This document shows, piece after piece, positions 3,573 to 41,409 of a DNA stretch of 64,000 nt. The DNA comes from Candidatus Cloacimonadota bacterium. GTDB lineage: Bacteria; Muiribacteriota; UBA6191. Location: assembly GCA_023954715.1 (NCBI GenBank), contig JAGSHD010000001.1, forward strand, positions 236,468 through 300,467, given 5' to 3'. The notes beneath the pieces were generated by a model, which did not search any database, was not told the DNA's origin, and worked only from the letters and a program-made list of their open reading frames with translations. The stretch's first letter is position 1. Each line of letters starts with the position of its first letter. A program made the translations under genes and the position numbers.

Positions 3573-4907
3573 ATGACTAAAGTTTTAGTAATAGACGATG
3601 AAAAAATAATGGCTGGATCCATTAAAAATTTACTCATAAACAGAGGATATAGTGCAGAGTGCTTTTTCAATCCTATAACTGCACTCAATGTTTTGCAAAA
3701 AGAGCATTTTGATATTGTTTTAACTGACTTTAAGATGCCTAATATTGATGGCCTTGAAATGATCGAACGAATCAAAGACATCCGTCCCGAATCCAAAATT
3801 ATTTTAATGACTGCCTATTCCAGTATATCCAACGCAGTTGAAGCCATGAAAAAGGGAGCGGACGAGTATATCGCTAAACCTTTTGAAATCGAAGACCTTG
3901 AGCAAAAGCTACAAATTTTAGGGGGAGCTCTCCAAAAAAAGAAAAAATCAAAACAAGTTCAAGTTGAGTTACTTGGTAATTCTGCACCCATGCTTCATCT
4001 TAAATCTAAAATTAAAAAAATCGCTCAAAGTGATGCTACTGTTTTAATTACAGGTGAAAGTGGAACAGGTAAAGAGCTAGTAGCTCAACAAATCCATAAT
4101 TCTAGCAGGAGGGCTGAACAAGCCTTTATTCCAATCAACATGGCGGCTATTCCTTTAAACTTGATTGAGTCCGAGTTTTTCGGATATAAAAAGGGTAGTT
4201 TTACTGGAGCTGAAAAAGACTATCAAGGAAAGTTTTTAGCATCTAATGAAGGTAGTTTATTTATGGATGAGGTGGGCGAAATACCACTTGATTTGCAGGC
4301 TAAACTACTTAGAGTTTTGCAAGAGTCTAGCTTTCAAGCAGTAGGGAGCTCTGAAACTGTAAAAATAAACTCACGATTTATTGCTGCTACCAATCAAGAT
4401 CTATATAAACTTACTCAAGAAAACAAATTTCGTGAAGACTTATATTACCGACTCAACATTATAGAGCTAAAGCTACCTCCTTTAAGAGATCGACTTGAGG
4501 ATATTAAGCAGCTTGTAACCCATTTTGCAGTCAAACACGGGACCCAAGAGATTAAAATTCCACAAGAGTTTTTAGATTTATTACGCGCATATCATTGGCC
4601 CGGAAATGTTCGAGAACTCGAAAACATTATTCATCGATGTATCGTTCTTGTTGAAGGAAACACACTAGATATTCATGATTTACCTAAGCATATTTCTGGG
4701 TTGACTCCAAAGCAAGAAACTCCTTTAACTGACATTAGTTTTCAACAGATTAAAGAAGGGCTTAGTTTAATCGATCTTGAGAAGAAAATAATTCTTAAAG
4801 CGCTAGAAGAGTCACAAGGTAATAAGACAAATGCAGCTAAGTTACTAAAAATCACACGACGAAAATTATACTCTCGAATGGAAAAACATGGCATTGACTT
4901 ATCTTGA
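3573..4907 (+). CDS. sigma-54-dependent response regulator (NtrC family: receiver + AAA+ sigma54-interaction + HTH)
   Basis: Receiver domain with phospho-acceptor Asp (LTDFKMP). Walker [15 protein letters not shown]-like motif (GSFTGA). ESEFFGY motif. C-terminal Fis-type HTH ([20 protein letters not shown]). Confidence 0.85.
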
Positions 4908-7304: not shown

Positions 7305-7937
7305 ATGAAGTACAATTATTATGCTGCTGTAGCTGCTTTTTTGATCACATTTAGTTATTTCATCTTAGCTATGCAATTTGATAATCAAGTCTCAAAAATT
7401 GATATACACAACAATCATAGCAAAAAAAAGATTAACTCATCTAAGACTCAGCCAATCAATTTACTTCAAATGAACCATAGCCTTTTACAACATATAGCTT
7501 TTACACAAATTAACATTACAACCAACAGCCCTAAGTTTAATTTACTTAGTAGTGGACCAAAACCATCGTTACTTATATCCAGCAAAGATAATCTAGATGA
7601 AATTGATCAACAAGTATCAAGCATTGAATCCACCTTGTTTACTACTATCAATCAATATGAGCTTCAACTTTCAAAGGTACATTTATCAGAAATTCAAAAC
7701 TATATCTTTCAAATGAATAGTAGCTTAACTGCTTTATATATCATTCAAAAAGATTTGTCTAGCACCTCGGATTTAGATGACTACAAAAGTGTTTTAATAA
7801 GGTTGGATCAAGCGATCCAATCATTCCAAAAGTACAACTTTCCTAACGACTTCATGATTTTGCTAGAGTCTTTTAATTTCAAACCTCAACTTGAGTCTTT
7901 GAGCAGTTTAGTTTTTAGCCTGAAAAATTCAAATTGA
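7305..7937 (+). CDS. hypothetical protein with N-terminal TM/signal anchor
   Basis: 210-aa ORF with a hydrophobic N-terminus (AAVAAFLITFSYFILA). No recognisable domain. Confidence 0.4.
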   Translation: MKYNYYAAVAAFLITFSYFILAMQFDNQVSKIDIHNNHSKKKINSSKTQPINLLQMNHSLLQHIAFTQINITTNSPKFNLLSSGPKPSLLISSKDNLDEIDQQVSSIESTLFTTINQYELQLSKVHLSEIQNYIFQMNSSLTALYIIQKDLSSTSDLDDYKSVLIRLDQAIQSFQKYNFPNDFMILLESFNFKPQLESLSSLVFSLKNSN

Positions 7938-8851
7938 TATGCGATCAGCCCAAATTCACTTAGAAATCTTTGAAACCCTCATCAATAAAGGCTCTTCAGA
8001 AAATATCGATTTTAAGCCGTTTTTAAGGGTTTTTGATGGTATAAGTCTAAAACATTAAAAAACATCAAATTTAAAATAGGGTGTTTTGTAAACTTTTTAT
8101 CACATTGTCTGAATAAGTAACTTAACTAACTTTTGTCATTGAAAACAAAGCCTACCTGAATCACCAATCCAAGGTTTCGATCATGATTAAATCTTTAAAA
8201 TGATATTGTGAGTTTGGAGATAAGTATAGTTTGTGTTAGTTTTTTAATATACAATCTATCAAGTTTACTCGATACAAAAGTAGACACTGAAATATATTAA
8301 GTAATCACATCGAAATCTCAAAAATAATATTCAGAAACAAAAAGCTAACCTTTATCAACATCATCGAATCCAGCAAATCATTTGAAGTGATTCAAAAACA
8401 TAAATTTCTATAAAAACTCTAGTGAATAATTTATCTTACAAAACCAATGCTAACCAATAGGGTTTTAAACTTATTGTACAGAACTATATCTTTGTAAAGC
8501 ACTATAACTAGGTATATAACAGCAAAGAGTTAATATCATAAAGTTAACATAAGATACATTATGCACAGTTTATTTGTAAGTCCAACATGTTAATGTCCTC
8601 TTTCTCCAATTTAGAAATGTCCTATTGTAAATAAATTATACTAGTTTTCCATAAGTTTGGAGGACCGAAAACATGCAGGATATTATAGCTATGAGTAAAA
8701 AGGAATTGCATCGAGTGGAGATGATTCAGAGGATAATTCCAGACTCACTTCTAAAATATGATTTACTCACCATGGTTACTTATAACTTTATTCGCTATCA
8801 TTTAACACAAAATCAACTGTTTGAAATTAAAAGATATTTTTGGAGTATAAT

Positions 8852-9965: not shown

Positions 9966-10559
9966 CTAAAAATCCCAATCTATAGATCCACCGATATTAA
10001 AGTTTCTAAAACCATGGGCTTTAGGATTAATAAAGGAGTGATTCATAGGGTCCTTTGTTGGCAAAGATATATGCTCTGCAAAGGTATATTCAAGCTCTAC
10101 GACTAATGGTGTTTTTTTGTTTCTTAGCTTTTGAATAAAACGAACATTATCTAATAATTTATATTTAGTGTTCAATGATAAATATGGTAACAAATCAGAA
10201 TCTACTTTATAACCTAAGGTTTTATAATATGTTTTAAAATTATTATTTAAGTGAGTTGAATTTAAACCAAATCCAATTCCTATACTTTGACGAGGATTAA
10301 TTTTACGATCGACACCTACATCTAATGTAAAAGAAGCTATCTTAAAATTATCAAAAGGATTGATTAAAGCAATTGGGCTAACTCCAAGGCCAAAGTAATA
10401 TTGTAGACTTTTTCTCCTCTTATTTTTTAGTAAGAAACGATTCCCAAAACTACTATTATACCCCTCTCCTGAAATACTCTGAATGTTGATCCATTCAAAT
10501 TTAGCTTTGGAGTGAGTTAATGAAATTAAGTTTAATAATAAGAGTAGTTTAATAATCAT
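9966..10559 (-). CDS. small outer-membrane beta-barrel protein
   Basis: Signal peptide MIIKLLLLLNLISLTHS from the ATG at complement(10557..10559). Alternating amphipathic strands. C-terminal ...GGSIDWDF ending in Phe is an OMP beta-signal. Confidence 0.5.
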   Translation of the reverse strand: MIIKLLLLLNLISLTHSKAKFEWINIQSISGEGYNSSFGNRFLLKNKRRKSLQYYFGLGVSPIALINPFDNFKIASFTLDVGVDRKINPRQSIGIGFGLNSTHLNNNFKTYYKTLGYKVDSDLLPYLSLNTKYKLLDNVRFIQKLRNKKTPLVVELEYTFAEHISLPTKDPMNHSFINPKAHGFRNFNIGGSIDWDF

Positions 10560-10912
10560 AAAGTGCTTTGGTGTATAGTGAGTTTTTATATGATATGTAA
10601 ATTTTAATATCGTCAATAATCCAATACTCTTTCATGACAAACAATATAGTAAACCATTTTTACAAAGACAATTTTGTTAGTAATAGTTTTTTAATTTTGC
10701 CTAAGCTATTTTCCCTATTTCGTAAGTCTCAACATTTGAGAGATAGCAATCTATATTTTTCAAAGTAAACTTATCTATAAATTTTCACATGGCATGACTA
10801 TCTAACAGTTTCAAGTAATACTATGCAATTGTTTCAAAGCTAGATAACAATCTTGTGACTTCTTTTGTATCATAGCTCTATCAAGAAAGAATGAAATTAC
10901 AAATCATCCAAT

Positions 10913-11755
10913 CTAAGATAGCTTAATCATCTCTTCACATTTAATAAACCAAGAGTCTTGTAATTTTAAATCTCTTTGGCTTTGCATGTATTGTGAAACT
11001 TGAACTAAAAAATAGTTTTCAAACAGATTGAAGTCTCTTAAGAGTAAATGTAGTTTTGTCAAATCACTTCTGTCAGTTGGCAGGTTATAATCCCACTTTT
11101 TAGAGATCGTGCTATAACAGTGAAGAACAAATTCACTAAACCCATCCTCAGATTTTTCTGCATATTGTAAAATACTATCCTTTTTACTCACAGCTTGATA
11201 GTCATGATGTAGCGCCAATAATGCTCCACAAATCCTAGCAGTAGCACTTACAAACCTCTTTAAACTAAAACCAAAGTCTGTTTGTTGTATTGTATATCCA
11301 TAAAATTCTGAGTTTTTATCCGGCAAAGGTAAAGGATACTGTAGTTGCTCAGCAGAGTCTCTTAAAAAAATATATAAAAAACGATACACACCATGGATAA
11401 ATCTATGACGACTTTGCTCTATCGACTCTAGGGGAATATTTTGAAAACTATCAACTCCATGAATATGTTTCGCATTTTTTGCCCAAGCAGGTAAAGTCTC
11501 TAAGTCTCGCAAATCAAAAGTACATGTTTCAATAATAGGATATGTGTTAAAGTCATTCAAAAAGTCACCAAAAGCCTTTTGAATCTCAATATCTACATCC
11601 TTATCAACCACCAAAATCAAATCTAAGTCACTATTTTGATTAGAAGAATCGTCTAAACGACTTCCACAAAAATAATAATCTACGAAAATATTTTCAAAGT
11701 CCTTCTCTGATGATTCGACGAAACTTTCTATTAACTGGCTTTCTTGAGAGTTCAT
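10913..11755 (-). CDS. Pol-beta superfamily nucleotidyltransferase, ANT(3'')/ANT(9) (AadA)-like
   Basis: Motif FCGSRLDDSSNQNSDLDLILVV matches the GS-x(n)-D-x-D nucleotidyltransferase signature and closely resembles AadA (LYGSAVDGGLKPHSDIDLLVTV). The downstream ...TLPAW also resembles AadA ...IIPW. 280 aa, as for ANT enzymes. Confidence 0.65.
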   Translation of the reverse strand: MNSQESQLIESFVESSEKDFENIFVDYYFCGSRLDDSSNQNSDLDLILVVDKDVDIEIQKAFGDFLNDFNTYPIIETCTFDLRDLETLPAWAKNAKHIHGVDSFQNIPLESIEQSRHRFIHGVYRFLYIFLRDSAEQLQYPLPLPDKNSEFYGYTIQQTDFGFSLKRFVSATARICGALLALHHDYQAVSKKDSILQYAEKSEDGFSEFVLHCYSTISKKWDYNLPTDRSDLTKLHLLLRDFNLFENYFLVQVSQYMQSQRDLKLQDSWFIKCEEMIKLS

Positions 11756-11769
11756 GAGATATCCAACGA

Positions 11770-12156
11770 CTAATGTGTTTTATATACGCCTACCATAACC
11801 CCGACACCCACAACAGACATCATTAAAGGACCACAAAAATAGGATGCTGCTATCAAGACAAGACCACCTACCAATGCCAAAGGCTTTTGAGACTTTTTTC
11901 CATAAATAAAGTATCCCGTACCTATAGATCCCCAAATCAAAGATGCAAATAAAAATGCTGTGTTAATCCCAGAGCTTGTTGGCTTTGCAACGGGCTCCGA
12001 AGATTGCGCCTTTTCTAGTTCGGCTAATTTATCTTTAAGTAAGTCTTGGTAGTTAGATACATTTTTTGATAAATCGTTAATATCTATTTCATTAGCAGCG
12101 TTCATGCTACAAAGTGCAAAAAAAACTATTAAAAACCGCAACATACGCCCTACCAT
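11770..12156 (-). CDS. small exported membrane protein with coiled-coil and glycine-zipper 2-TM segment
   Basis: Signal-like N-terminus. KDKLAELEKAQ coiled coil. GSIGTGYFIYG and VVGVGVMVGV glycine-zipper helices. 15-nt gap to the NTase gene. Confidence 0.5.
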   Translation of the reverse strand: MVGRMLRFLIVFFALCSMNAANEIDINDLSKNVSNYQDLLKDKLAELEKAQSSEPVAKPTSSGINTAFLFASLIWGSIGTGYFIYGKKSQKPLALVGGLVLIAASYFCGPLMMSVVGVGVMVGVYKTH

Positions 12157-12242: not shown

Positions 12243-13190
12243 CTACTGATTATAGTCTTTGAGCTCCTGCCAAGCATTTTGATAAACATCTCTTTTGTAA
12301 GAAACAGCATTACCCAAAATTGTATCGATTGGCTCCCAAATATAAAAATCAAAATCATTTGATTTAGTAATCTGCTTTTTTTGCTCGTCATTTACTTCAA
12401 TCAAAAAATAATACTGTAATTGACCGATATAATGATCGTAGATCTGACCCTTTTTCCAATAATATGGTCTTGCTTGTTTGGTTTGTGCAAGAGTTTGATA
12501 ATCTTCTAAAAACAACTCTTCTAAAAGCTCCCGTTTGATTGTTTCTACAGGTATTTCAAAGGGTTCGATTCCACCTTGGGGTAACTGAAAGCCCTTATTT
12601 TTATTGGGAATATCTCTTCTATGACAAAACAAAAAGTTACCACTTGAGTCTTTGATGAACGCTGCCGCATTTAAGCGATGTTTTAGCTGAAAAAGTATAT
12701 GCTCTGTAATTTCTGATACAGATTTCCCGGAGCTCTCTACACTAATTCCGAGAGAAATATCATCTAAATAATTACTCTGTTGAGCTAAAATTTCATGAGT
12801 TCTAGTTTGCTCTAACTGAAAGTTTTCTCTGGCTCTGCTTGATATCCGATTTTCTATCTCTTGAGTATCTGCTTTTAAGTAAAAAACTCTCAACTCACCG
12901 ACTAAACCATGAAACAAGTCTTGCATGTATTTAATATGCTCTGGTTTTTCAAAAACAAAATCAATCACAACAGTCGATAAACCATGCTTCAAAGAATATT
13001 TGGCAATAGTAGCTATTTCTTCGATAGCTTTTTTAATTTTAGACTCACATCGAACATCCCAGTCTGGTATAGAATGAGTAACCGAATCCCCTTCTAAGTA
13101 GCAACTTCGATCGATACTCTGTGCTAAATCTTTTGCAACAGTGGATTTTCCGATACCCAAGGTGCCATTTATGATGATAATTCTTTTCAT
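12243..13190 (-). CDS. fusion protein: N-terminal P-loop kinase (AAA/CPT-like) + C-terminal NUDIX hydrolase
   Basis: Walker A IIIINGTLGIGKSTVAKD at the N-terminus. Nudix box QGGIEPFEIPVETIKRELLEELFLE at residues ~200-225. Confidence 0.6.
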   Translation of the reverse strand: MKRIIIINGTLGIGKSTVAKDLAQSIDRSCYLEGDSVTHSIPDWDVRCESKIKKAIEEIATIAKYSLKHGLSTVVIDFVFEKPEHIKYMQDLFHGLVGELRVFYLKADTQEIENRISSRARENFQLEQTRTHEILAQQSNYLDDISLGISVESSGKSVSEITEHILFQLKHRLNAAAFIKDSSGNFLFCHRRDIPNKNKGFQLPQGGIEPFEIPVETIKRELLEELFLEDYQTLAQTKQARPYYWKKGQIYDHYIGQLQYYFLIEVNDEQKKQITKSNDFDFYIWEPIDTILGNAVSYKRDVYQNAWQELKDYNQ

Positions 13191-13417
13191 AGTTAGTTTA
13201 AATTTTGTGCAGATTATTTTTTATACATTTATATTTTCTATTATAGCTAGAAAGCTATAAATTCACTAGCGTGAAAAAATATAATTTACATTTAAATCAA
13301 TTTCGTCTTCCAAAAACCCTTTTGTTTAATTAAAATTATGCTGTTATATCGTATCTAATAGACATAGTTTTTGATTATAATGAGTATAAACCCTAATTTA
13401 TACAAAAGACTCATCCT

Positions 13418-14107
13418 ATGAAATTTCTACTTTTTTTTATATTTACTATACAATCCTATATTTGTAATGATTTTTTTGTGTATCACTGTAAATATGTTTC
13501 TGCAAAGGCCCTAGTACAAAAAATTTCTATATTTAGAATTAAAGGAAAGTTCACTCCAAGTAATCATTCAACCATTATTTATTTTGGAGATAAATTAGGT
13601 TTTCAATTCTTCAAGAAATTCGCTAGTAGTTTTGATATTAAACCCATAATGATTTCAGGACAGGTTCAACTATCTACTCAGTATCTAAATTCCAAATTAA
13701 CTTTAACAGAGTATTCAAATCAAAATCAATCCCAATGGCAAACTGCTGCATTTAAAGGTTTAAGCGGAACAAACATTAAGATTCAACTGGGTGAACAAAC
13801 TGTAAAAAAACTTGAAAACTTGTATCAAATCACAAATAGCGGACTCTATCTAAATCTTATTCCTGTAAAAATTGGTGATCATTTTGAAGTAGATCTTAGT
13901 ATTCGATCATCCGCACTACATGATAAAACACTCTATAGCTCACAAAAGTTAATAGTAAACAATGGGTCTTGGACCAGCGTAAACAATTTTACTAGTTCTC
14001 AAAACTCTAAAACCAAACATCTAGGTGAACATCTTAAAGACTTAGTTAACAAGCAAAATAGTCTTTTAGGGTTAAAGGCACGTATTGTGCTTTACACAAA
14101 CGATTAG
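13418..14107 (+). CDS. hypothetical exported protein
   Basis: Signal-peptide-like N-terminus MKFLLFFIFTIQSYIC. Asn/Ser/Gln-rich. No known domain. Confidence 0.4.
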   Translation: MKFLLFFIFTIQSYICNDFFVYHCKYVSAKALVQKISIFRIKGKFTPSNHSTIIYFGDKLGFQFFKKFASSFDIKPIMISGQVQLSTQYLNSKLTLTEYSNQNQSQWQTAAFKGLSGTNIKIQLGEQTVKKLENLYQITNSGLYLNLIPVKIGDHFEVDLSIRSSALHDKTLYSSQKLIVNNGSWTSVNNFTSSQNSKTKHLGEHLKDLVNKQNSLLGLKARIVLYTND

Positions 14108-14220
14108 CTCTTTTCTTTTTCCTGTACTATGATAGAATCTGGCAACCCTAAGAAAGTAGTCGCAAACTTATACAGTCACTTCCATAGAAATTCAATACCT
14201 TAGCTATACAAGGAGATAGA

Positions 14221-16902
14221 ATGAAGGTAAATGTAAATAATACTAATTCTAACTTTAAACTTAGTCCCGAAATTCTCTCCAGCACTTTTAGTTTATTTTT
14301 GTTAACTACACTTTTAGTTATAATACACATCTGTTTTGGCCATCTTTTCTTTCACGCCATAGCAGAGCTATTTTCAGTATTTGTAGGAGTACTAATGTTA
14401 GTAGTTATTGCTAACACGAGTACCTTCATAAAAAATAGTTTTTTATTATATTTGTCCATTTCATACTTTTGGCTAGCGATTTTAGACGTTTTTCATACTT
14501 TTACGTTTCCTGGCATGATTTTATCTGATAACACTCATGGACAACTTACCCTGCAATTTTGGGTGTATGCAAGGTTCATTGAAAGTCTTGTGTTATTAAT
14601 TTGTCCAGTCTTTTTAAAAAAACACATCAATGGAAAACTCTATTTTTCAATAAGCTGTATCGTGTGCTGTATCATAGTTTGGGGTTCTTTAAACCTTAAA
14701 AATCCACAGATGATTACAGAAGAAGGCTTAACCCCTTTTAAAATTTATTCAGAATATTTAATCATGTTTATACTATTGCTGGCGCTTTTGAACTTTCTGA
14801 GACTTAGGACAAGTTTTAATCCCTCCGTGTTTTGGTATATTTTCAGTTCACTTTGTTTGACCATTGCATCTGAATACTTTCTTACCCTATATGAAGATGT
14901 CTATCATGTTTCAGTTATCATTGGTCATGTTCTCAAGTTTTTAAGTTTTTCGCTAATTTATCAAGCAGTGGTCAGAACCACGCTCCGAAGTCCATTTGAA
15001 AGCTTAGCTCAAGTCAGTAACAGTCATGATGCGATTCCACATCCATCTATAATTGTTAGTAAAGAATGTAAGATTTCTCAGGTAAACAACTCCGCTTTAC
15101 AATTAATAAAAATATCCCACGATAATATTAACAATGATCACATCCATCAGCACTTCCACCCCAATACTTTTATCGAAAGCCAATGTAGTTTTTGTCAATC
15201 TATCATAACTGGCACTACCCTTAGTCAAGAAACGGTTTATTTTCCTCAATACGATAAATGGTACCTGCTATCCCTAACACCTCTAAAGCTTCTAGATAAA
15301 GTTGAAGGCATGGTGCAAACTCTCACTGATATATCAGAACTCATAGCATCCAATGATAAACTAGAAAAAGAAACCAAAGAAAAAACAAGCGCCATAACCA
15401 AAACTCAAAATTTGCAAAAATATTTAGCCAGTATCTTTGATTCAATACCATCAATGTTAGTTGCAGTAGATACCAAATGTCTAATTACTCAATGGAATTT
15501 AAAAGCGCAAGAAACCATTAACCGTGAATTTAAGTCAGTGCAACACCAGCCTCTTGAAAAAGTTTTTCCTTTTCTTAAAGAAGATATAGATACCATACTA
15601 ACCTGTATAGATAAGAAACAAACTAAAATAATCAATAATCGCCAATGGACCAAATCTACCGATATAAAATATTTTGATATCATAATCTTTCCACTTGTAG
15701 TTGATACAATGGTGGAATCATTAATCATTATTGATGATGTAAGCACTCAGTTCAAATTAAAAGAACAGTTCGATATGGCTAAAAAAATGGAAACCATAGG
15801 GCAACTCAGTGGTGGTATTGCACATGATTTTAACAACATGCTAGGTGCTATTCTAGGGGCTGCTGAGCTTTTATCTTTAAAAAATGATAAGACTGATTCA
15901 GATAGATCTATCTATTTAGAAATTATAATAAATACAGTACAAAAAGCCACTGGTCTAACCTCAAAATTACTTAGCTTTAGTAGAAAGAAACAGCTCCACA
16001 AGACAGTAATTGACTTTCATGAGGTTATCGATGATACACTTCTTATTACTCAATGAACTACGGATCGAATTGTTAATTTTTGCAGTAAACTCAATGCGAC
16101 TAACTCAGTTGTAATTGGAGATTTTTCAGCATTGCAAAACGTCTTACTTAATCTAATTTTAAACGCAAGTTATGCAATCAAAGGCAATGGTGAAATATTA
16201 ATTCAAACCAAAAATGTTTATCTTGATGATAGATATTGTGATGAGTCTACTTTTGATGTTACACCTGGAAACTACTTGGAACTACTGATCAAAGACTCTG
16301 GAGAAGGTATATCACCTGAAAATATTTCTAAAGTGTTTGAACCTTTTTTCACTACCAAACCTCAAGTTGAAGGTACCGGACTAGGTCTATCTTCTGCTTA
16401 TGGTACAATTTTCGAACATCTTGGAGTAATTCAAGTGGATAGCAAATTAGAAGTAGGTACTGAGTTTAGGATTCTTTTAGCATGTACACAAGATACACCC
16501 TTTAAAAAACCAGAGCCTCACGCCTTACAAACTTTTAGCGGACTTATACTACTAGTTGATGATGAAGAAATTATTCGTATGACAGCTACATCTATGCTAG
16601 AAAATATGGGATTTAAAGTTATAAACGCAGCAAACGGCGCAGAAGCTATTGAAATCTACAAAAAACAAAGCCATGAGATCGACCTATGTATACTAGATAT
16701 GATTATGCCTAAGTTAAATGGTAAGGATACATTCTATGAACTTAAAGGCATAAATGCTGATTGCCAAGTTATTTTATCTTCTGGCTATGTAAAAGACGAT
16801 AAACTGAAGACTTTACTCAAAGACGGACTCAGTGGGTTTATTAGTAAACCCTATCGCTACAGTGATCTCAACAAAGTTATATCAGATATTAAAACCACTT
16901 GA
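14221..16902 (+). pseudogene. hybrid sensor histidine kinase (multi-TM sensor + PAS + HisKA + HATPase_c + REC) interrupted by one in-frame TGA at 16054..16056
   Basis: ORFs 14221..16056 and 16132..16902 are in the same frame. The first has ~8 TM helices, PAS-like regions and an H-box (SGGIAHDFNNMLGAIL). Reading through the TGA gives ...LLITQ*TTDRIVNFCSKLNATNSVVIGDFSALQNVLLNLILNASYA (N-box), then DSGEGISPE...GTGLGLS (G-boxes) and a receiver domain (LLVDDEEII...DLCILDMIMP). Confidence 0.6.
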
Positions 16903-17002
16903 GTAAATTTCTGCAAATCGTTTTTCTTTTTGGTATACTCTTGCTACATCCACTGTTTGGCCCAAATTCTCTAAATTAATTATTTTTACACTCAAATCTA
17001 CC

Positions 17003-17374
17003 ATGACTGACGTTAACCAAAGCAATCACCCCGAAATCGTAGCTATATTGAATATGATGGACTATCAACATCTTGTTGATTGGATCAATGAAAGCGCAAA
17101 AGTACACTCTCAAATTAATGATTTAAACGACAAAGACTTCAATCGACTCAGTACGCACTTAGTTCAATCGATAACATACCTCATCGTGACCAACTTATCA
17201 GAATTTGTCGAAGATGTTTCAGACCCAAAGATTCAAACAAAACTTCAAAAAAACATTGATGATTTAAAAGAGTTTTCTTGCGTGCAACTCCAAGGTGAAC
17301 AAGTCTATCACTTAATCTCTTTATGGAGCACAATGCGACGAGAGCTGTTAAGTGATCTAGGTGCCATCCAATAA
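17003..17374 (+). CDS. hypothetical protein (123 aa) immediately upstream of nhaC
   Basis: Clean ORF with a 9-nt gap to the next gene. Confidence 0.4.
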   Translation: MTDVNQSNHPEIVAILNMMDYQHLVDWINESAKVHSQINDLNDKDFNRLSTHLVQSITYLIVTNLSEFVEDVSDPKIQTKLQKNIDDLKEFSCVQLQGEQVYHLISLWSTMRRELLSDLGAIQ

Positions 17375-17383
17375 GGACACTCT

Positions 17384-18850
17384 ATGAACGAAACCAAACA
17401 ACCTAGCCTACTTATCTCCCTGACACCCGTCTGTTTTTTGATAATACTCTTAGTCTTTAATCAGCGTATATTTGAAGGTGATGCCACCTACGGCCCCAAT
17501 CAACTAGCTCTTTTATTATCTGGCATGCTCACTTTAGCCATTGGCTTTTTACACTTGAAGGTTCCGTATAAACAAGTAGAAAAAAATATTATTGAGTCCA
17601 TCAGTTTATCTCTTCAAGCTTGCTTAATACTTTTAGTTGTTGGCTCATTAATAGCAACTTGGATTTTATCTGGTATTGTCCCTACAATGATTTTTTATGG
17701 ATTAAAGATTATTAACCCTAGTTACTTTTTACCAGTTGCTTGTATCTCTTGTGCCATGGTTGCACTATCAACAGGATCGTCTTGGTCAACAACCGGTACC
17801 ATAGGAGTAGCACTCATGGGGATCGGCCAAGCACTCGGGATTCCAGTACCTATGTGTGCTGGAGCTATCATCTCGGGAGCTTATTTCGGAGATAAAATGT
17901 CTCCCTTATCTGACACAACTAATCTTGCTCCTGCTATGGCTGGAACAGATTTGTTTACCCATATACGACACATGTTATATACCTCTGGGCCGGCAATAGT
18001 AATTTCAATCATCGGTTTTTTTATACTTGGAATGTTTTACAAAGGGTCTGGAGCAAATTCAGATAATGTACAAGCTATCCTCAATGTGATTCAAAGTAAT
18101 TACAATATCGGACTTCATCTGTTTATTGTTCCAACTATTTTACTGGTATTGATTGCCAAAAAAATGCCAGCTTTTCCGGCACTTGTACTTGGAGCAGTTT
18201 TAGGTGCATTAGGAGCAATACTATTTCAGTCAGAGCTTTTAGCTAAAATCACGGGGCACGCTTTAGACATGGCAAATGTATATAAAGAGGTCATTAAAGT
18301 AGCTTTTTCTGGATTTAATTATGATTTTTCCAATGCTGTGGTAAACAAACTTTTTAATCGTGGTGGAATGCAAAATATGCTAGACACAGTGTGGCTCATT
18401 ATGATGGCCATGGTCTTTGGGGGAGCATTAGAAGGCACAGGGATGTTACAAAAAATAGCCAGTTCTGTTTTACAATTTGTCTCTGGTGCCGGAAGTTTAA
18501 TTGGAGCTACCTTAGGTACATGTTTATTTTTAAATATGACAGCTAGTGATCAATATTTGGCAATTGTAGTTCCAGGTAAAATGTTCAAAGGGGCTTATGA
18601 AGATATGGGTTTACATCCCAAAAACCTATCAAGAGCACTAGAAGACTCTGGTACTGTAACTTCGGTACTCATCCCATGGAACTCCGGTGGTGCATACAAC
18701 ACTAAAATATTAGGAGTTGGTCCAGATATGATTTATAGCTATCAAATATATTGTTTTTTTAATATATTAAGTCCTTTAATCTCACTCTTTTTAGGATCCA
18801 TGAACATAACCATTGAAAGAATCCACAATGAAAGAAAGTTGTCTCAATAA
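17384..18850 (+). CDS. nhaC: Na+/H+ antiporter NhaC family
   Basis: 488 aa with ~11-12 TM helices. N-terminal pattern (LLISLTPVCFLIILLVF..., GMLTLAIGF) and overall architecture are typical of the NhaC family. Confidence 0.7.
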   Translation: MNETKQPSLLISLTPVCFLIILLVFNQRIFEGDATYGPNQLALLLSGMLTLAIGFLHLKVPYKQVEKNIIESISLSLQACLILLVVGSLIATWILSGIVPTMIFYGLKIINPSYFLPVACISCAMVALSTGSSWSTTGTIGVALMGIGQALGIPVPMCAGAIISGAYFGDKMSPLSDTTNLAPAMAGTDLFTHIRHMLYTSGPAIVISIIGFFILGMFYKGSGANSDNVQAILNVIQSNYNIGLHLFIVPTILLVLIAKKMPAFPALVLGAVLGALGAILFQSELLAKITGHALDMANVYKEVIKVAFSGFNYDFSNAVVNKLFNRGGMQNMLDTVWLIMMAMVFGGALEGTGMLQKIASSVLQFVSGAGSLIGATLGTCLFLNMTASDQYLAIVVPGKMFKGAYEDMGLHPKNLSRALEDSGTVTSVLIPWNSGGAYNTKILGVGPDMIYSYQIYCFFNILSPLISLFLGSMNITIERIHNERKLSQ

Positions 18851-18857
18851 ATACCAA

Positions 18858-19907
18858 TGGATGGTTAGTCCAAAATTTGACCTATGTATATTTCTAGGTC
18901 CGGTATTTTTTGCTACACTTATTAGCCCAATCGCATATGCCTACTATCCAGATAGCATCCCTCTTTGGGCTTTTGTCTCCATTATTATCTTGTTTGACGT
19001 AGCTCACGTATGGGCTACCAATTATAAAGTATATTTTGACTCTGTTGAGATTAAAAGAAGACCATGGTTTTATCTCTTGCCTATACCTATCTTCTTTAGC
19101 CTATCTTTTGTACTTCTTTTATATTCAGAAAACCTCTATTGGACAATTTTGGCTTATGTAGCCGTGTTTCACTTTATCAAGCAACCTTGGGGTTTTGTAT
19201 CCATCTACAAAAGAAAGTTCAAAGAAAACTCAAAATTTGATCTACATTTTGATAAATACATGGTGTGGGCAGCTGGTCTATATCCTGTGTTTATATGGCA
19301 TAGTAGTCCCGCTAGAGTTTTTGATTGGTTTAACGCAGGAGAGAGTTTCATCGTTAAACTGCCCTATCAAATCATCCCCTATTTGATGTTTTTCTATGTG
19401 GCAGGGATCATCGTATATATCAGTCGACAAATCTATTTATATAAAAAAACATCAAAGATTAATTTACCTAAATTGATTTTAATGACTGCCATATATATCA
19501 CTTGGGCCGTAGGAATCTACATGACAAACCCCATTATCTCAGCCGCTTTTCTAAATTTGTTTCATGGAGTGCCATTTTTTGCAATCATCTGGATATACTC
19601 TAAAAACAAATATATAGACCAAGATTCAATCTACCCTAAACTATCTTTTATTTTTCAAAGAAAAACGATTTTTCTCTTTATAGCGATTGTTTTTATTCCG
19701 GCATTGATAGAAGAGTTTTTATGGGATCAGTTAATTTGGCATATTTATTTACCAAACACTAGTTTTATTGATCTTGGCTTTCAGTTAAAAGCACTTGTTA
19801 TTGCATTATTATCACTTCCACAAATTATTCATTATTGGCTTGATATGTTTATTTGGAAAATGGATGAAAACAAAAATCCAGATCTTAAAAAATATCTTTT
19901 GATTTAA
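18858..19907 (+). CDS. polytopic integral membrane protein, unknown function
   Basis: ~350 aa with >=8 hydrophobic helices. The start is uncertain (ORF track 18813; internal Met at 18858). Confidence 0.4.
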   Translation, partial: WMVSPKFDLCIFLGPVFFATLISPIAYAYYPDSIPLWAFVSIIILFDVAHVWATNYKVYFDSVEIKRRPWFYLLPIPIFFSLSFVLLLYSENLYWTILAYVAVFHFIKQPWGFVSIYKRKFKENSKFDLHFDKYMVWAAGLYPVFIWHSSPARVFDWFNAGESFIVKLPYQIIPYLMFFYVAGIIVYISRQIYLYKKTSKINLPKLILMTAIYITWAVGIYMTNPIISAAFLNLFHGVPFFAIIWIYSKNKYIDQDSIYPKLSFIFQRKTIFLFIAIVFIPALIEEFLWDQLIWHIYLPNTSFIDLGFQLKALVIALLSLPQIIHYWLDMFIWKMDENKNPDLKKYLLI

Positions 19908-20131
19908 TCCTCAGTTAAAAAAATTGTAATTATTCTAAAAAGATTACGACTAAGCACTAAAATTAAAATTACCCCACTTACTTCACCTTAAAAACTCAAA
20001 AGCTATATCTTTAAGATTTACATTTGTTTTTTCCGTCAATATCTAAATTAAATTATTTGTTAAATAACTTTGGCATTTTACATATTCATCATTATACTTA
20101 TAGTGGACTAATTTTTTTATTTTGGAGAACC

Positions 20132-21163
20132 ATGACACGACTATACACTCTTTTCTTATTCACCCTACTAATTCTAGTCAATCAATCTATTGCTGAGTCT
20201 GACATTTTCACCAGTTTTGATAATCGATATCAAGAAATCACCAATGAACCTGTTCAAAAAAATGTACAAATCCCAACAAGTAATGGAATAGCCGTCTTAG
20301 ATTTGAAATTGGCCCTTCTTTTACATCCCGCAATGAAAGATTATAACTTTACTATTCATAGTTTCATCAAACCCATACCTAAAAATTTAAATGTACCAAT
20401 CAACTTCTACCTAAAAAATAGGATCAAAGAGTCTAGTGAAATGGTACTGAAATCCAAAAAAACATATAAAGATTTACGACTTAAACAACTCGAAGTACAG
20501 CAAAAAATCTCTTCATTGATATATAATAAGTCCAGTAATATCCGTAAGATTATGTCCAGTAATCGAGGTGACACAGAAAGCCAACTAGAAAAGTTTCGTA
20601 GTGACTATCAAAAAAAGCTCAAAAGATACCAATTACAAAAGTTAAGTATCACCAAAGACATTGTAAATACTTTTGATACTTCTTATGGTATCCATTACAT
20701 GACCCGAACCGACCGTGATCGACTATTGAAAAAGATAGAGAAAGAGGTCTTACTTGCTGCTAAAAAAGTACTTAATTCTCAAAACTTATCTGTACTTCTA
20801 AATGGTAACTATCTAGAAGATGTAGCTCCTCAAACAATCTCCAAATTAGCATGGGTAGATAAAAATTTTACTGGGGTGAATGCTTTAAGTTTTTACTTTC
20901 AACGCCAACATCAAGTTATAGATGACGAAATACAATCGTACTCAGAACAGATCGGAGCTGACTTGTTTGATCCTTATTACAAAAACCTAAATAAAATCCC
21001 TGCGATTTTCGGTAAAAATTATAATGATCAATTTATTTTACTTGGTGGAAAAAACATAACAAAAGCAACCCTTCAAGTTTTATATCAAAAATATAACAAA
21101 TTAAATCTAATCAAAGACATTTTAAGTTTCGTTCAAAAAATAAAAGAGAATCAACATGAATAA
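20132..21163 (+). CDS. exported coiled-coil protein, possibly Skp/OmpH-like periplasmic chaperone; translationally coupled to the giant gene
   Basis: The ATG at 20132 follows a GGAG RBS. Signal peptide MTRLYTLFLFTLLILVNQSIA. Skp-like N-terminal block NGIAVLDLKLALLLHPAMK. Long K/Q/E-rich coiled coil. The stop TAA overlaps the next ATG (ATGAATAA). Confidence 0.5.
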   Translation: MTRLYTLFLFTLLILVNQSIAESDIFTSFDNRYQEITNEPVQKNVQIPTSNGIAVLDLKLALLLHPAMKDYNFTIHSFIKPIPKNLNVPINFYLKNRIKESSEMVLKSKKTYKDLRLKQLEVQQKISSLIYNKSSNIRKIMSSNRGDTESQLEKFRSDYQKKLKRYQLQKLSITKDIVNTFDTSYGIHYMTRTDRDRLLKKIEKEVLLAAKKVLNSQNLSVLLNGNYLEDVAPQTISKLAWVDKNFTGVNALSFYFQRQHQVIDDEIQSYSEQIGADLFDPYYKNLNKIPAIFGKNYNDQFILLGGKNITKATLQVLYQKYNKLNLIKDILSFVQKIKENQHE

Positions 21164-24100
21164 ACATATCCTATTTATCACTGTATTTTTTTATCTCGCA
21201 ATACAATGTAGTTATGCAGTCATTGGCAATAAAGACGATGCCATCAACCAAATTAAAATCAGAAACGGTGACGTTTATGTTTTAGTAAATCCCAACCTTG
21301 CTTCAGGCGTACCTACCTCGAGTGCTTATGGACTTTGGAGATTTTATCGTGGGAATGACTATCCTGATGATACAAAATATAAACGACAAAAAATGTCTAA
21401 GTTTCCTGTACCAAACAACACCAATAAATATTCTGGTTTAACAGTAGATAAGTTTGCTAAGGTTTACGTCTTTAAAGAAATTCCAGACGCGGGTCAGACT
21501 TCCTTGGTTACTCTTGGTAACACTCACCCTATTTTAGAAACTGGCACTTTTCCTGGTTTTGTAGATACAGATAATTCAAAGATGAAAGTAGGAACCGATT
21601 GCGCATCAGAAAGAGCTGTAAAAGGATCCCCTCCTGGTTGGGTTTATGTCATCACAGATGACGGAAATGAAGGTTGGGTAAAGTACTACGATACAACAAC
21701 TCATGGTAGCCTAGGAATGGTGGAAACACTCACTGAAAAACCAGGAGTTAAAAATGCTATTGATGGGCTAGGCGGAACGATTTTACCTCCTGCTTTTAAA
21801 TCTTCGGCTGCAAACTTTTATTATACAGCTCACGGAGGCTTTTGGACGGGTAGTGCATCAAACCCTACCCACGGAATAGAAATCGCTGGTGCTACTGGTA
21901 GCCCAGGAAGACCTGCTCCAAACCCAACCTTTTGTGGAAATCCTGGTAAAGCCAATGGTGATCCAAGATATCCTGAATGGGGATATAATAAATGGCCTGG
22001 ATCTCCTTGTGGATCTAAATTATATCCAAGTCTTGGAGCCTTTTTTATGACTCCTGCTAAGTCTACTCATGCCGCTGATGGTGGTAAGGGGACTAATGTT
22101 GCAGCCGTTCGAGTTTGTTCTGTAAGTAAAGAAGTACGTAAGTTATTCTTTGATAGATATATCGAAGGTACAGATCACGATATTTTAAAAGACTCTAAAC
22201 CTTTTTTGGGCTTGACCAATGATGATCTTTTTTCTGGTCCACCAAGTGGAGTTGGGGACGGTAAACTAATATCAGGGACAATCCCTGTTTCTGTATCAGT
22301 AGGTTCACTCACTCGATATGCCCGATTCAATCATTGTGGAGATATGTGTGGAGCACCAGGTCAAAGTTCACCTCCTATTCCAACAACTCCAGGTAAAGCA
22401 GTTGGAGCTATGTCATCCTTTGGTACTAAAGATAGTGAACAGCGAAAATACGTTTTAAAATCATCTAGCTCTGGTGGAAACCCCGAGACTTGGGTGATGC
22501 AAATTGATGGAAATGGTTCTACAGGTACCTTAGGTCGTACTCCATTAGTAAAAAGAGACGGTGGTGTTTTTGATTTTAATGGAGCTACTGGTATAGACTT
22601 TGACCCAGAAACAAGTGCACTTGGATCTAGATTTGCAGCCAGCGAGTATATTGGTTTTAGAGATACTGGGTCAGGAATTGGTCACATTTCAACAATTCAA
22701 GTTTCTAAAAGAGATGATACAAAGGATTGGGTATATACTTCTAACCCAGCTAACCCTCAATTTTTCAGAGTATCTGAAAGCTTTTGGGGAACAGGCGGAA
22801 TCCAGTGGATCTTAAAAAACCCAAATAATGCTACTATCGAGTGGTTACAAGTCAACCACGAAACCGGTATTGAAATTTCTAAAGATAGTATGGATGTTAA
22901 CAATGCCAATCCTATTGTAGCTTTTGGGGTGGATGGTGACGGTAAGGTTTATTGGCTAGAAAAATCTTTCCAAGAAAGTCTTGTCCAACTTACAGACACT
23001 CTAGGTGGAACCTCTCCTACATGGGAGAAAATCTCTAATTCTGGTAAATTAGTAGCTCCTACTGTTACTCCTGTGTTAACTCCGAGTGCCGGCGAATCTG
23101 GTGTACCCATTTTAGTAAAAATCTCAAGAGATAGTGGGCTTGGTCTCTTTAAATCAGCCATCGGTGTAACTACTCCATTTTTTATTGGTACCTTACCAAC
23201 TGGTGGCGTAATATGTGAGCGAACTTTCATCTCTGTTTCTGGTGATCCTACTAAAGCAGGATATTGGTCTGAAGCTGCGTGGAGTGGTCAATTTTGTGAT
23301 ACACCAGACAACACTTTAGCTGTTGATGTAGAAATGGCTGTAATCAACGTGGCTAACCCTCCATTATCTGAAGGGGATTTTGTTTTAGATATTGTTGATG
23401 TACCTGACATTTTAGAGGGACAAAAAGTAACTTTTTACATGGAAAACCCTCCTAGATTTAATGGGCAAAAAGCTCAACTAGCCGGAGCAGGAAGCAACAC
23501 TGCTTTTGCTCCATACAATTGCGCTCCGGATGCTGTACTACGATCTTTCTCAGAAAGTCCAGGTGCCTTTGATGGTTATGTTCGTATGGTATCTAACGAA
23601 AATGCTACAGGGTCAAGACCTGTATTAGACGAGTTAAAGCTTTTAACTGAAGTGCGAAACACTGGTGTTCAAACAAAATCAGGTACTGCTTGGACTTATG
23701 AAGACTCTGATGTAGTCATTGGACAAAACCTTCCTGCTTTTGTTTATGAAGATATTCCAAGCCCTCTGATCTCAAGCTCTGGTCCTTGTGCTGGAGGATT
23801 TCCTGTAAAAAAACTGGGAGTTAATAATAAAACACTTAGATATAGATGGATGGTAAAAGCTTTGACTCCTCCCATGAGTAAAAAAACAAATCATCCAAAG
23901 TTAACCGAGCTTGGTTTACCTAACCAATGTGATAACCCAACAACTGACCCAGCTTATGTTGAGCCAAAGTTAAAAGAAATTCCTGGTCTTATTTTCGCCA
24001 GTTGTTTTGAGGATGTCCCTCTTCACTCTGATCCTGCAATGGCAGCACTTGATCAAACAGAAGTCAAATCTCCAGATATCGAGTTTCCAGATCCTGGATC

Positions 24101-27100
24101 TTATGAAGTAATCTTAGAGTTAGTTGGATTAAGATGGGATGCAGATGGGCTAACCTTTGCGGATGACTCCACTGGTGTATCTTATGAAGTTACAAAAGCT
24201 GTAGCTAGCTACATTGTAAATGTTCATCCAATGCAAGCCCAGCTAGATGGTTCTGTAAGTGATGTACACATCATGAACAACTACGGATCATATACCTCTC
24301 CTGACTCTACTTGGGATGGTACTCCTTTAGTTGAAAATAGCGTTACTGGTAATGCAGCCCACCTTGAAGTAGTAGAAGGGTCTCCTTTTCCTATGGTTGC
24401 AGAAGTTACCATTGATTTTTTTAGAGCTCCAGATAAAGAGTATGCGAGTGACTCAACGGACAAAACCATGAAAAAGTATGATGGTGTTGGAGTCTGGGAT
24501 TACACTTATCCAGGAACAGTTCATGACAAAACAATGGTCCATCCTATGAACTTCGCTAGTGGCCCTACTGGATTACCTGGTGAAGTTGGAGAAGTAGACC
24601 AAGATGCCGGAAATGATGCCACAGCAAATTATGATACAAGTCCCGTACTTTCTCAAGCAGGAACAGTTCTTACCCCTATCTTTTATGACCCCAATGATAT
24701 ATCTCTATCTACTAAATTAAACCATATTCAAGGCACCTATAGTTTAGATCGTTACTACTCCCATGGTGTAGGAGGAGCAACACCTAACGGCCTAGAAAAT
24801 ACTTATGAGTCTATGTTTGATTGGTATGAAATAAAATACTATTGGTTTTACAGATACAAAGACCCAGTGTCCGGTCAAAAAACTGCTCCAAAATTATTTA
24901 GAAAAGGAAACTTATCTGAAATATGGGCAATACATAATTTAGCATCAGTAGCTGGTAAAGACTCCATCATGCCAAATGATATCCAAGATTCATCCAACTT
25001 CTGGAACGATGGTGAGTTGATTAAAGTCCTTGACCCAGATCGTCGTACCTATAAAGTTCGTATTCCGCTGTTTAAAAACCAGTTACTACTGGATGATGGC
25101 TCTCCTGTTGAAGACCGAGTTATGGATTGGACTAAATTAGGTAATCCAGACTTTTCTGCTCTTACTCCTGCCAATGTAGTAGCAGGTGGCGTCAATCGAG
25201 TGGATGCAAACTTAGGTTTATATGATTTTAAAGTTCCAAGTGAGCCTAGCTCTATCGAGTTTAGCTTTTATATTGACTACCCTATTGTTAAATGGTCAAA
25301 GCGAAACCAGCAAGGACATACTTTAGATGCTGATCATGTAAACGAAACCGTTTCTTCTGATATAGCAGCTGAACAAGGTACAACCGACAAAGCAACACTT
25401 TTAGCTAATATGGACCTAGATGCAACTTATTATGATTTGGTTCCTTGGGGACCACGTTCTGATGCTCTTGGTGGAAACAACTCTGATATGAACGATTCTA
25501 TCCGATCTTATAACAGTAATGATCCTAGACTTTTGGCAAACTCTGTATCTGGTTGGGGAAACATCGGTGCATATCGTACCAAAGGTGGACTCTACACAGC
25601 TACCGAAGCTAGCAGTGGAGGAATGAATGCTGATGGTAGCTACTCCAAAGATGATGGCACCGAAAACGATCATTGGTTTGATGTAATCGTATTGGATAAT
25701 ACCCCTCCTTCCATATCTTATGTAAACAATCTTGGAGATGAACCTTCAATGACAGGAGCTTTCTCCACATTTAGTTTTGAATCAAAAGTCGGAGGTATGT
25801 GGGATAGTAATGATGGAGTTGTAATTTCTGTAATGGATAACAACCCCTACCAGCACTGGTTAAACTACAAAGCATTTGATGCTGCTTCTCCAGAGATTGA
25901 GCCTTATAGTCCATATCTTCAACAATTTTACTATGATCTAGGACCAGATCCTAGAAACCTTCTCGGTTTAGGAGCAAAAGATAATGGCTCAACAGCACAA
26001 CCATGTGTTTGGGGGTATTCCATCTCTAATCCCCTATCTCCACTTAAAGCAGAAGCTGGCAATGGAGCTGGGTGGCTTAATCCTTTTGGACAAGAAGAAA
26101 ATCACTTTAACACCAATATCGTGACGCACCAGCAACCAGGATGTAGTTATCAGCACCCATTTACTTCTATGGCCTTTAGTGATCAAAGCTTCGTACGGCA
26201 TGATACTGGTACATTTAATCTTGCCAATATTTTAGATAGTGGTACAGTAAAGTTTACTCCACCAGCTACTCTTTTAAGTGGATCAATCTACGATGAAGGA
26301 GTGGTCGCTCCCGTAAATAATAGCTATTACTCAATACAATTTAAAACTAAAGTTGATAATGTATCTGGAATCCCTATCCCAACCGAGTATGGTGCTGAAG
26401 CGGGAGGAGAAATCAAGTTTATCGACAATCCTGGTAATTATCAAGCCATGGATGGCAGCTCAGTAAATATATCATTTCAAACTACTTCGTTTTTTGCTGG
26501 AAACTTTGATGCTACAGGAGACACGGGAGTTTTAACACCTCAAGAGACCTTTAGAGATCAAGCATATCGTACAGCTTTTTATTGGGTGCCAAAAGATGCA
26601 CTTATATCTCCATATTTCTTTGGTGCTAACTCTGGAGGACAAGAAACATATAAGGCCTATGCTAGAGCTTATGATATCTCTAGAAAACATGGTAGCTTAG
26701 CTCATCAAGGTTTAGCACGTGAAGACGTGGGTACTTCTTTAGGCACACTCGATCAAAGACCAAACTTAAAGGCTACTGAAATTGGGGACTATACTATCCA
26801 TGACAATAGAGAACCCAACATTAAAGTTACATTTTTCGATTACAAAATGAACTCATTATTCAAATTTATCATTTTAAATGATGCTAGCCACCATCATCAA
26901 CAGTCACAAGCTGGACTATTTAGTAAACACAGTATTTTACTTAAATCAAAAGATCCTCGAGATAGCTATTATTTAAAAGCTGGAGATCAAGCACAAGCAA
27001 CGATTTCATCTGGTAAATTAACAGTTACTAGTGACTATGATCTAGCAAATCCAAGCTCTGTTACTGGTCTTGCCGCTTATGGGACAGATGCTTCTGGTTT

Positions 27101-28439: not shown

Positions 28440-29216
28440 CTACTCTTTGACGTAGATCATAATTTTATTGTGAAGTTTTAATTTTTTCGCTGCATAATCA
28501 ATTATAATAAAAGCACAAGAACATATTTTCATTAAAAAGTCATCGTGATAATCCTTGTTTAATAACATAGAAAATAATATCACTTGCCCTTTGTTAGTCT
28601 CAACTTTCAACCTATCATTTTGAATCTGTATAACAAGATCTTTACTCTGGAAATTTGGCGTAGATTGTAGTTCATAAGACATTCCTAAGTCATTAAACAT
28701 ACTAATTAAAAGAGAAGCTTGTGTGTAATTTGCTAGGACTTGTTTTTTATTGTCCGTTTCAAGAAAACGATCAACCCATTTATTTGTGCAATAATCCGAA
28801 CAAATCAAGATAAAAAAGTCACACAAAACAAACTGATCCTCATGACTAAATTCATCAAAAAAATGTAGCTCTAACATATTAAGAGCATTTTTGGGATTAA
28901 CAACTTTTCTGCTATGTCCGCCGATCCAATGAAAATATGCGGTAGGATCTACAACACTTTCTTTTTTTAGTGGATTCCAACAAGTTACCATGTCGTTGCG
29001 GTTTTTCCAGTTACAAAAGATGCTTAATCTCGAGTCACTTATATCAATAGCTGGTATATAATCTTGTTGAACAACAATCACATTATAGTTATATGAGAAG
29101 TTTATTAGTCCCCGTGTTACCAGAATATCCTTGATTTGCTCAAATCGATCTTCATTCAAAATATGTCGTTTTCCTTTTAAAGTTAACATTACAATACCCA
29201 AAAAAAAAGAGCCCAA
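28440..29216 (-). CDS. hypothetical protein (probable start at internal Met, complement 29187..29189)
   Basis: Clean ORF convergent with the radical SAM gene, with stop codons abutting (28439/28440). No recognised domain. Confidence 0.4.
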   Translation of the reverse strand: MGSFFLGIVMLTLKGKRHILNEDRFEQIKDILVTRGLINFSYNYNVIVVQQDYIPAIDISDSRLSIFCNWKNRNDMVTCWNPLKKESVVDPTAYFHWIGGHSRKVVNPKNALNMLELHFFDEFSHEDQFVLCDFFILICSDYCTNKWVDRFLETDNKKQVLANYTQASLLISMFNDLGMSYELQSTPNFQSKDLVIQIQNDRLKVETNKGQVILFSMLLNKDYHDDFLMKICSCAFIIIDYAAKKLKLHNKIMIYVKE

Positions 29217-34763: not shown

Positions 34764-34771
34764 TATTTCTC

Positions 34772-35965: not shown

Positions 35966-36705
35966 CTTAGAGCTTCTTCAAGGGTTAATGATGCATCACT
36001 TTTATCATCTCTATATTTAATAATGATAGGACAATTTAACTGAAGACCCTGAACATTTGCCCATTTATTACTTGGATTAAATGGTCGTGTCCCTGAGACT
36101 ACAACAGCTCCCGTTGGAACATCAGCCCCTCTTTCTAAAATTTCATTATTTACTGCATCATAGATAGATACGCCTCTAGACAAAGTTACTCCAGGAGCAA
36201 TCACAGCTCTTTCTCTCACAACGATTCCTTCAACGATAACACTACCAGCTCCCACAAATACATTATCTTCTAGTACTACAGGAGCCATTCCAATAGGCTC
36301 TAAAACTCCACCGATTTGCACTCCAGCCGATAGATGAACATGTTTCCCTATTTGGGCACATGATCCAACTAATGCGTGAGAGTCCACCATAGAGCCTTCA
36401 TCTACATAAGCTCCCACATTGATATAGGCTGGAGGCATGATAATTACACCCTTAGCAACATAAGCACCTCGTCGTACAGAAGACCCTCCTGGTACTAAAC
36501 GAACACCATCATCTACAGTAAACTCTCTAGGCATTAAAGTATCTTTATCTACAAAACCATTAAAAGCTACACTAGCTCCTGCTTTGAATGCTTCTAAAAT
36601 AGAGTGTTTTACTCGTATATCTGCTTCCCATTGCCCTTTTTCATTTTTATTGGCTGATCTCAGCTCACCACTCTCTAATTTATCTAATACTTCATCAAAA
36701 GTCAT
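35962..36705 (-). CDS. dapD: 2,3,4,5-tetrahydropyridine-2,6-dicarboxylate N-succinyltransferase
   Basis: Strong identity to E. coli DapD across the hexapeptide-repeat core ([40 protein letters not shown] vs [40 protein letters not shown]). Confidence 0.85.
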   Translation of the reverse strand: [247 protein letters not shown]

Positions 36706-36739
36706 ATAATATCCGTTTGTAAATAATGTTTGTATCTAA

Positions 36740-39656: not shown

Positions 39657-39720
39657 GATCTTTCCTCTATATAATAAGAAGAGGAGGAAAGTTTTAAGAA
39701 TTTGAGTTTTATAAACCCAT

Positions 39721-41394: not shown

Positions 41395-41409
41395 AAACTT
41401 TTATCTTGT

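Follow-up and report, generated by a model that had tools for sequence, protein, structure and literature searches.

A hybrid histidine kinase gene interrupted by a single in-frame TGA, probably through a recent nonsense mutation

Do two adjacent open reading frames (ORFs) that together spell out a hybrid histidine kinase represent two genes, or one gene broken by a stop codon? The question arises on contig JAGSHD010000001.1 of the metagenome-assembled genome (MAG) GCA_023954715.1, in a stretch of 64,000 nucleotides that we refer to as the window. On its forward strand, an ORF of 611 aa (14221..16056; NCBI MCO4780878.1) is followed by one of 256 aa that starts with TTG (16132..16902; MCO4780879.1); GenBank names them ‘PAS domain-containing protein’ and ‘response regulator’, and neither is flagged as a pseudogene. 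The first-pass annotation of this DNA had described the two ORFs as lying in one frame with a single TGA between them, and both the sequence and the ORF calls bear this out: between 14221 and 16902 the sole premature in-frame stop is the TGA at 16054..16056 (context caa TGA act), and translation through it yields 893 sense codons. We found that the locus is one hybrid histidine kinase gene interrupted by one stop codon, and a recent nonsense mutation that truncated or inactivated the gene is its likely history.

The domain content of the two parts was determined with Pfam models. The 611-aa ORF, whose ATG at 14221 is preceded at a distance of 5 nt by an AGGAG Shine-Dalgarno motif (14211..14215), contains a MASE3 domain (PF17159, E-value 1.1e-60; nt 14341-14994, residues 41-258, profile positions 6-226 of 226), a PAS domain (PAS_9; nt 15043-15339), a second PAS domain from nt 15421 and a HisKA domain, or DHp, at nt 15799-15990 (4.7e-09; residues 527-590). 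The CAT codon at 15823..15825 encodes His535, which alignment predicts to be the phospho-acceptor within the H-box SGGIAHDFNN. Past the premature TGA, which is codon 612, the frame continues for 281 sense codons and a terminal TGA (16057..16902), and this part holds the remainder of the catalytic and ATP-binding (CA) domain, matched by HATPase_c (3.2e-16; nt 16120-16479) with its N, G1, F and G2 boxes intact, and a receiver domain (Response_reg, 1.1e-22; nt 16546-16881). At this base composition, the chance that a stretch of 281 codons would stay open after the stop is about 1.6e-9. HisKA, HATPase_c and receiver, the domains that define a hybrid kinase, are all present; what the locus does not have is a single uninterrupted frame.

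Models that span the junction are matched contiguously by the two pieces. Among NCBIfam models, the N-terminal piece matches positions 331-561 and the C-terminal piece 584-706 of CckA (NF046020); the corresponding intervals are 413-529 and 541-809 for a VirA-like model (NF010411), and 263-477 and 485-610 for AtoS (NF008468). An alignment to the CckA DHp+CA structure 5IDJ runs through the stop position (E 1e-35), and in a 17-sequence alignment all 16 homologues pass this position without interruption. H535 is invariant in two homologue alignments. In the 17-sequence alignment, N644, N648, D692, G694, G696, F706 and G718-L723 of the catalytic domain are invariant columns, and the receiver columns D781, D826 and K876 are nearly so. 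The domain order, the adjacent model matches and the uninterrupted homologues together establish that the two ORFs derive from a single hybrid kinase, as had been proposed from the sequence at first reading. By the established logic of two-component systems, membrane and PAS sensing in the ancestral protein would have governed how the CA domain autophosphorylates His535, from which the phosphoryl group would then have passed to the aspartate of the C-terminal receiver.

The CckA models of NCBIfam are the best matches of both halves, and the protein shares with CckA-type kinases the AHDFNN H-box, the N/G1/F/G2 boxes, the receiver Asp and Lys and the DHp+CA alignment to 5IDJ. However, the scores against NF046020 (80.5 and 178.6 bits) are far under the equivalog cut-off of 1000, the sensor consists of MASE3 and PAS domains instead of the CckA sensor region, and the frame is interrupted. 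Judged from these profile matches, the kinase is a relative of CckA by domain class and not an orthologue. The full order MASE3-PAS-PAS-HisKA-HATPase_c-REC, where REC is the receiver, occurs in four homologues of about 880 aa (P0003-P0006). Apart from one relative described below, the MASE3-PAS homologues are only about 31% identical to the window kinase, which scores 158.8 bits against the MASE3-PAS model NF047874, below its cut-off of 560, and which differs from them in being truncated at codon 612. A literature search on MASE3 kinases, the sequencing run and the protein accessions returned nothing of use.

The alignment column of the stop indicates which codon it replaced. This column is Arg in 10 of the 16 homologues and H, A, S or V in the others; it is also Arg in the CckA structures 5IDJ and 5IDM and in P0213, the protein most closely related to the C-terminal half. 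Among 5.8 billion clustered proteins, in which the 611-aa product itself is present as an exact match (P0001 = MCO4780878.1), there is only one close relative, P0002, with 53-55% identity. The contig that encodes it, L001, comes from the Logan assembly of run SRR19733577. A 229-aa ORF directly upstream of the window kinase (13418..14107, forward strand) has a homologue that holds the same place in L001 (87..773), and this conserved neighbour shows L001 to be the syntenic orthologous locus. Around the stop, the L001 sequence is ACT AAA AGA ACC ACC GAC CGT and that of the window is ACT CAA TGA ACT ACG GAT CGA. The first-pass annotation had proposed a comparison with orthologues as a check; L001 has AGA, and the stop is not common to the two loci. 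Both AGA and CGA are one substitution away from TGA, and with AGA as the orthologous codon the stop lies one substitution from Arg. These comparisons show that codon 612, as far as the aligned homologues tell, was ancestrally an arginine codon.

Further orthologues were sought in three ways. A scan of genome contigs with full-length alignment (pattern GG[IV]AHDFN) gave no orthologue among the matches listed, the best of which had only 36-47% identity, in the C-terminal half. No relative was found in a scan of metagenome contigs by alignment of the N-terminal part only, and a search with the exact DNA pattern around the stop, its codon given as NNN, had no match. The product of the upstream 229-aa ORF has a signal-peptide-like N-terminus, looks secreted and belongs to no Pfam family; it might work together with the MASE3 sensor.

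The stop allele is present in two assemblies. The Logan assembly of run SRR13262723, made with an independent k-mer-based assembler, is 100% identical to the MAG over 7122 bp (window positions 12935-20056), TGA included. The stop lies outside any homopolymer or repeat. Exact look-ups of neighbouring proteins found the strain in this one sample only, and no intact near-identical protein is present among the 5.8 billion clustered proteins.

We then compared the window kinase with L001 on both sides of the stop. Identity is 52% in MASE3, 52% in the PAS region, 67% in DHp and 59% in the part of the CA domain downstream of the stop. The proportion of nonsynonymous differences (pN) is 0.28 over the 611 upstream codons and 0.26 over the downstream CA segment; the synonymous proportion (pS), at 0.76, is saturated in this comparison, which precludes a proper dN/dS. 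These values indicate that the downstream part has been equally constrained for essentially the whole of the divergence. The part past the stop retains intact N, G1, F and G2 boxes as well as the receiver Asp and Lys. A stop would result from 4.4% of all substitutions that could occur in its 843 nt, so that the lack of a second stop limits neutral divergence since the event to about 8% at most (95% level). This leaves two readings, a recent lesion or a downstream part that still has a use. We favor a recent lesion because the 281 downstream codons are free of defects and constrained like the upstream part.

A simple course of events would account for these observations. One base substitution would have turned the conserved codon for Arg612, AGA or CGA, into TGA. 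Translation would then end when 18 residues of the catalytic domain have been made, giving a 611-aa sensor-DHp protein that neither binds ATP nor autophosphorylates and that has lost its receiver. The downstream CA-REC part would be translated little or not at all; residual amounts could arise only through trace near-cognate read-through of the UGA or through an inefficient restart at TTG 16132..16134 (Leu638 of the read-through protein), and the restart product would carry a CA domain without its first 44 residues. We infer that the stop is a real allele, that kinase function is abolished and that downstream translation is negligible. The locus resembles bacterial pseudogenes that arose through one nonsense mutation, in that it has one premature stop, which is one substitution away from a conserved sense codon and absent in the orthologue, in an otherwise intact gene; the evidence for it comes from assemblies and sequence comparison. 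The four options named in the first-pass annotation, a nonsense mutation, a sequencing error, read-through and a functional split, did not fare equally. The nonsense mutation is favored because homologues have Arg, and L001 has AGA, at the stop, because the split is absent in the relative, because no domain boundary lies at the stop and because stand-alone CA-REC proteins are essentially absent among the 150 best relatives of the downstream ORF; a sequencing error is less likely, and the remaining two options are disfavored.

Several points weigh against a recent nonsense mutation. Both assemblies probably share their reads, so that a systematic consensus error, or a polymorphism in which the stop is the minority or majority allele, is compatible with their agreement, and a single sample carries the strain. 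The term ‘recent’ depends on one comparison, with the only close relative that exists. The intact state of the downstream ORF would be expected just as well if it were still translated. Shine-Dalgarno motifs are missing before most genes of the window, and the poor context of the TTG therefore says little against a restart. Finally, the NCBI pipeline called two ordinary genes and no pseudogene.

The first alternative concerns the stop codon itself. If the TGA were a consensus or sequencing error, or a minor allele that the assembler had fixed, the gene of the organism would carry AGA, CGA or TGG, all sense codons, at this place and encode an intact 893-aa kinase. Such an error would fit the flawless state of the downstream 281 codons and their catalytic motifs, the origin of the MAG in a single sample and the distance of just one base between the TGA and a conserved Arg codon. 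Consensus substitution errors are rare at normal coverage, though, and the stop lies in no repeat or homopolymer; an intact near-identical protein is missing from the 5.8 billion clustered proteins; and the independent assembly of SRR13262723 agrees with the MAG over the whole 7.1 kb. The identical assembly makes an error less likely, and the probable common origin of the reads is what leaves it some room. On balance we consider it unlikely that the TGA is an artefact or a minor allele.

The second alternative accepts the stop and gives the pieces a function: the 611-aa MASE3-PAS-DHp protein and the 256-aa CA-REC protein would work in trans, or the truncated sensor alone would act as a phosphatase or a dominant-negative protein. 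There is precedent for such proteins. Split kinases are exemplified by CheA3/CheA4 of Rhodobacter sphaeroides and by EnvZ, whose domains A and B were split in vitro, HisKA proteins without HATPase make up 3.66% in SMART, and an HE/DxxN/T phosphatase motif is described (PMC3591291), which the AHDFNN of the window kinase matches. The downstream ORF is intact and historically constrained, NCBI annotates two genes, and L001 is likewise cut between H-box and CA domain, by an independent -1 frameshift (see below). Like CheA3/CheA4 and split EnvZ, the locus has one ORF for phospho-acceptor and dimerisation and another for ATP binding. However, those proteins are cut between domains, with separate expression signals for each part, whereas the break in the window kinase falls within the CA domain, lacks conservation and is followed by no convincing restart site.

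The position of the cut is given by the CckA CA construct 5IDM, which aligns from residue 594. The stop at residue 612 is thus 18 residues inside the domain, and the TTG at residue 638 is 44 residues inside it, so that a restart would remove these 44 residues. This TTG is the only in-frame ATG, GTG or TTG from the premature stop to the receiver domain, and at the homologous position L001 has TTA, no start codon. A GGAG located 11 nt upstream of it corresponds to conserved Gly-Asp codons; among window ORFs of at least 100 aa, most lack a Shine-Dalgarno motif and those that have one show spacings mostly of 4-9 nt. With the motif missing before most genes, the weak ribosome-binding site of the TTG counts little against a restart. 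No promoter-like or terminator-like site was found near the premature stop, nor a promoter-like site ahead of the downstream ORF. Translational coupling through an ATG that overlaps the stop (caATGAact) was considered and rejected, as that frame closes after 7 codons.

The relatives of the downstream ORF point in the same direction. When the 256-aa ORF was compared with 1.84 billion representative proteins, 149 of the 150 best matches were the C-terminal parts of proteins of 493-1354 aa, with the matched part beginning at least 236 residues from the N-terminus. The lone short match (P0222, 272 aa) starts in mid-domain with Leu, not Met, and is probably a fragment. A designed two-gene arrangement is made unlikely by the location of both the stop and the TTG within a domain, by the AGA and TTA that L001 has in their places and by the near-universal occurrence of the CA-REC part in longer kinases. 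Taken together, we judge functional pieces of either kind to be distinctly improbable.

The relative L001 bears a lesion of its own. At 2518-2530 it has a -1 frameshift, in which a GGGG run is one G short, at codon 547 and directly after the H-box (NMLGGILG | AAQLLEMQ). This is 65 codons upstream of the position of the TGA in the window; the called product is 565 aa long and the remaining kinase lies in a different frame. Elsewhere in L001, another 33 homopolymers of 5 to 7 bases cause no frameshift, and a platform artefact is therefore not an obvious cause; a homopolymer error seems unlikely. Both known orthologues would thus have independent lesions within 65 codons of each other, with CA and REC lost and the sensor and the HDxxN H-box kept. 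Two lesions fit relaxed or negative selection on the kinase in this lineage, a hint that amounts to an anecdote, as there are two sequences only. We see a slender chance that, in this sparsely sampled lineage, truncation between the H-box and the ATP-binding domain recurs and is selected for. In that case, each truncated MASE3-PAS protein, with its phosphatase-type H-box, would be a kinase-dead phosphatase, a dominant-negative sensor or one half of a trans-acting split kinase, the other half being supplied by the intact CA-REC ORF.

The last alternative is that the TGA is not read as a stop. The genetic code of the window was examined through its genes. With code 11, ORFs of at least 100 aa span 89.6% of the window, and the 50 long ORFs end with TAA (31), TAG (12) and TGA (7). 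The NtrC-type gene at 3573..4907, given in the first-pass annotation as an example of TGA serving as a genuine stop, does end with TGA, six residues past its HTH_8 domain and with a further stop directly after; as one of the seven TGA-terminated ORFs it confirms that statement. Tryptophan is encoded by TGG, with 7 such codons in the kinase gene. No other TGA-split gene was found in the window, where the remaining long read-through extensions follow TAA or TAG and enter the adjacent gene, and ORF and domain scans of the 64 kb detected no other visibly split gene. TGA is an ordinary stop in this genome, which uses the standard code. Reassignment of UGA (code 4 or 25) is ruled out by the code-11 coverage and by the complete genes that end with TGA.

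Signals for recoding were also looked for. The RNA downstream of the UGA folds no better than shuffled sequence (16040-16140; minimum free energy -14.1, mean of the shuffled sequences -14.6, z = 0.15), there is no Rfam match near the stop, no tRNA gene lies within the 64 kb and no Sec genes occur among the scanned ORFs of the window. None of the 16 homologues has Cys or Sec at the stop column. Given the lack of a hairpin above background, and Arg instead of Cys in the homologues, we reject the insertion of selenocysteine. UGA is the leakiest stop codon of bacteria, which, with the 281 open codons past the stop, can be counted in favor of programmed read-through, selenocysteine or a suppressor tRNA supplying a meaningful amount of full-length kinase; with RNA no more structured than expected by chance, Arg in the homologues and AGA in L001, and six other ORFs that TGA ends normally within a window tiled by code-11 genes, we regard such recoding as very improbable.

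Other features of the window were recorded alongside the kinase locus. A lysine riboswitch (RF00168, 80 bits) at 39719-39889 on the minus strand precedes a lysC-dapB-dapA-dapD-lysA-like operon, which occupies 33615-39737 on the same strand. The riboswitch and the GTG-started lysC ORF (38313-39737, minus strand) overlap, and NCBI gives LysC as 447 aa; for both reasons the true start of LysC would lie further downstream. The nearest named homologues of LysC are from Bacteriovorax and Bdellovibrio (44-49% identity), and a JGI metagenome contig has a LysC that is 88% identical (P0094). LysC points to a deep relative of these genera, and so the MAG label ‘Candidatus Cloacimonetes’ looks doubtful on sequence grounds, and the lineage appears poorly sampled. 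The ORF at 31786-33345 (forward strand) encodes an outer-membrane protein with an N-terminal SLH domain and a Porin_5 barrel, an OmpM-like tether; such tethers are typical of some deep-branching diderm lineages. The gene content, which includes LpxK, a futalosine-pathway gene and the lysine operon with its riboswitch, suggests a free-living, Gram-negative bacterium.

An unusually large share of the long ORFs in the window belongs to no Pfam family. Besides the neighbour of the kinase gene, these include the ORFs at 276-1586, 1700-2218, 7305-7937, 9966-12156, 18813-21163, 28440-29216, 41353-42090 and 59285-61957, the last of which (889 aa) also has no NCBIfam match. An ORF of 2106 aa at 21156-27476 (forward strand) has a signal-peptide-like N-terminus and is rich in Gly, Pro and Ser; it matches no Pfam family, lacks tandem DNA repeats and has a GC content of about 40%, compared with about 33% elsewhere in the window. 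In the interval 7938-8839, about 900 nt, ORFs do not exceed 60 aa in any of the frames, and Rfam matches are absent.

The kinase family to which the interrupted gene belongs is already known, and the event is of an ordinary kind. For the annotation, the finding means that two separately named genes should be replaced by one disrupted MASE3-PAS hybrid kinase gene. For the organism, it means that one signalling input has probably just been lost.

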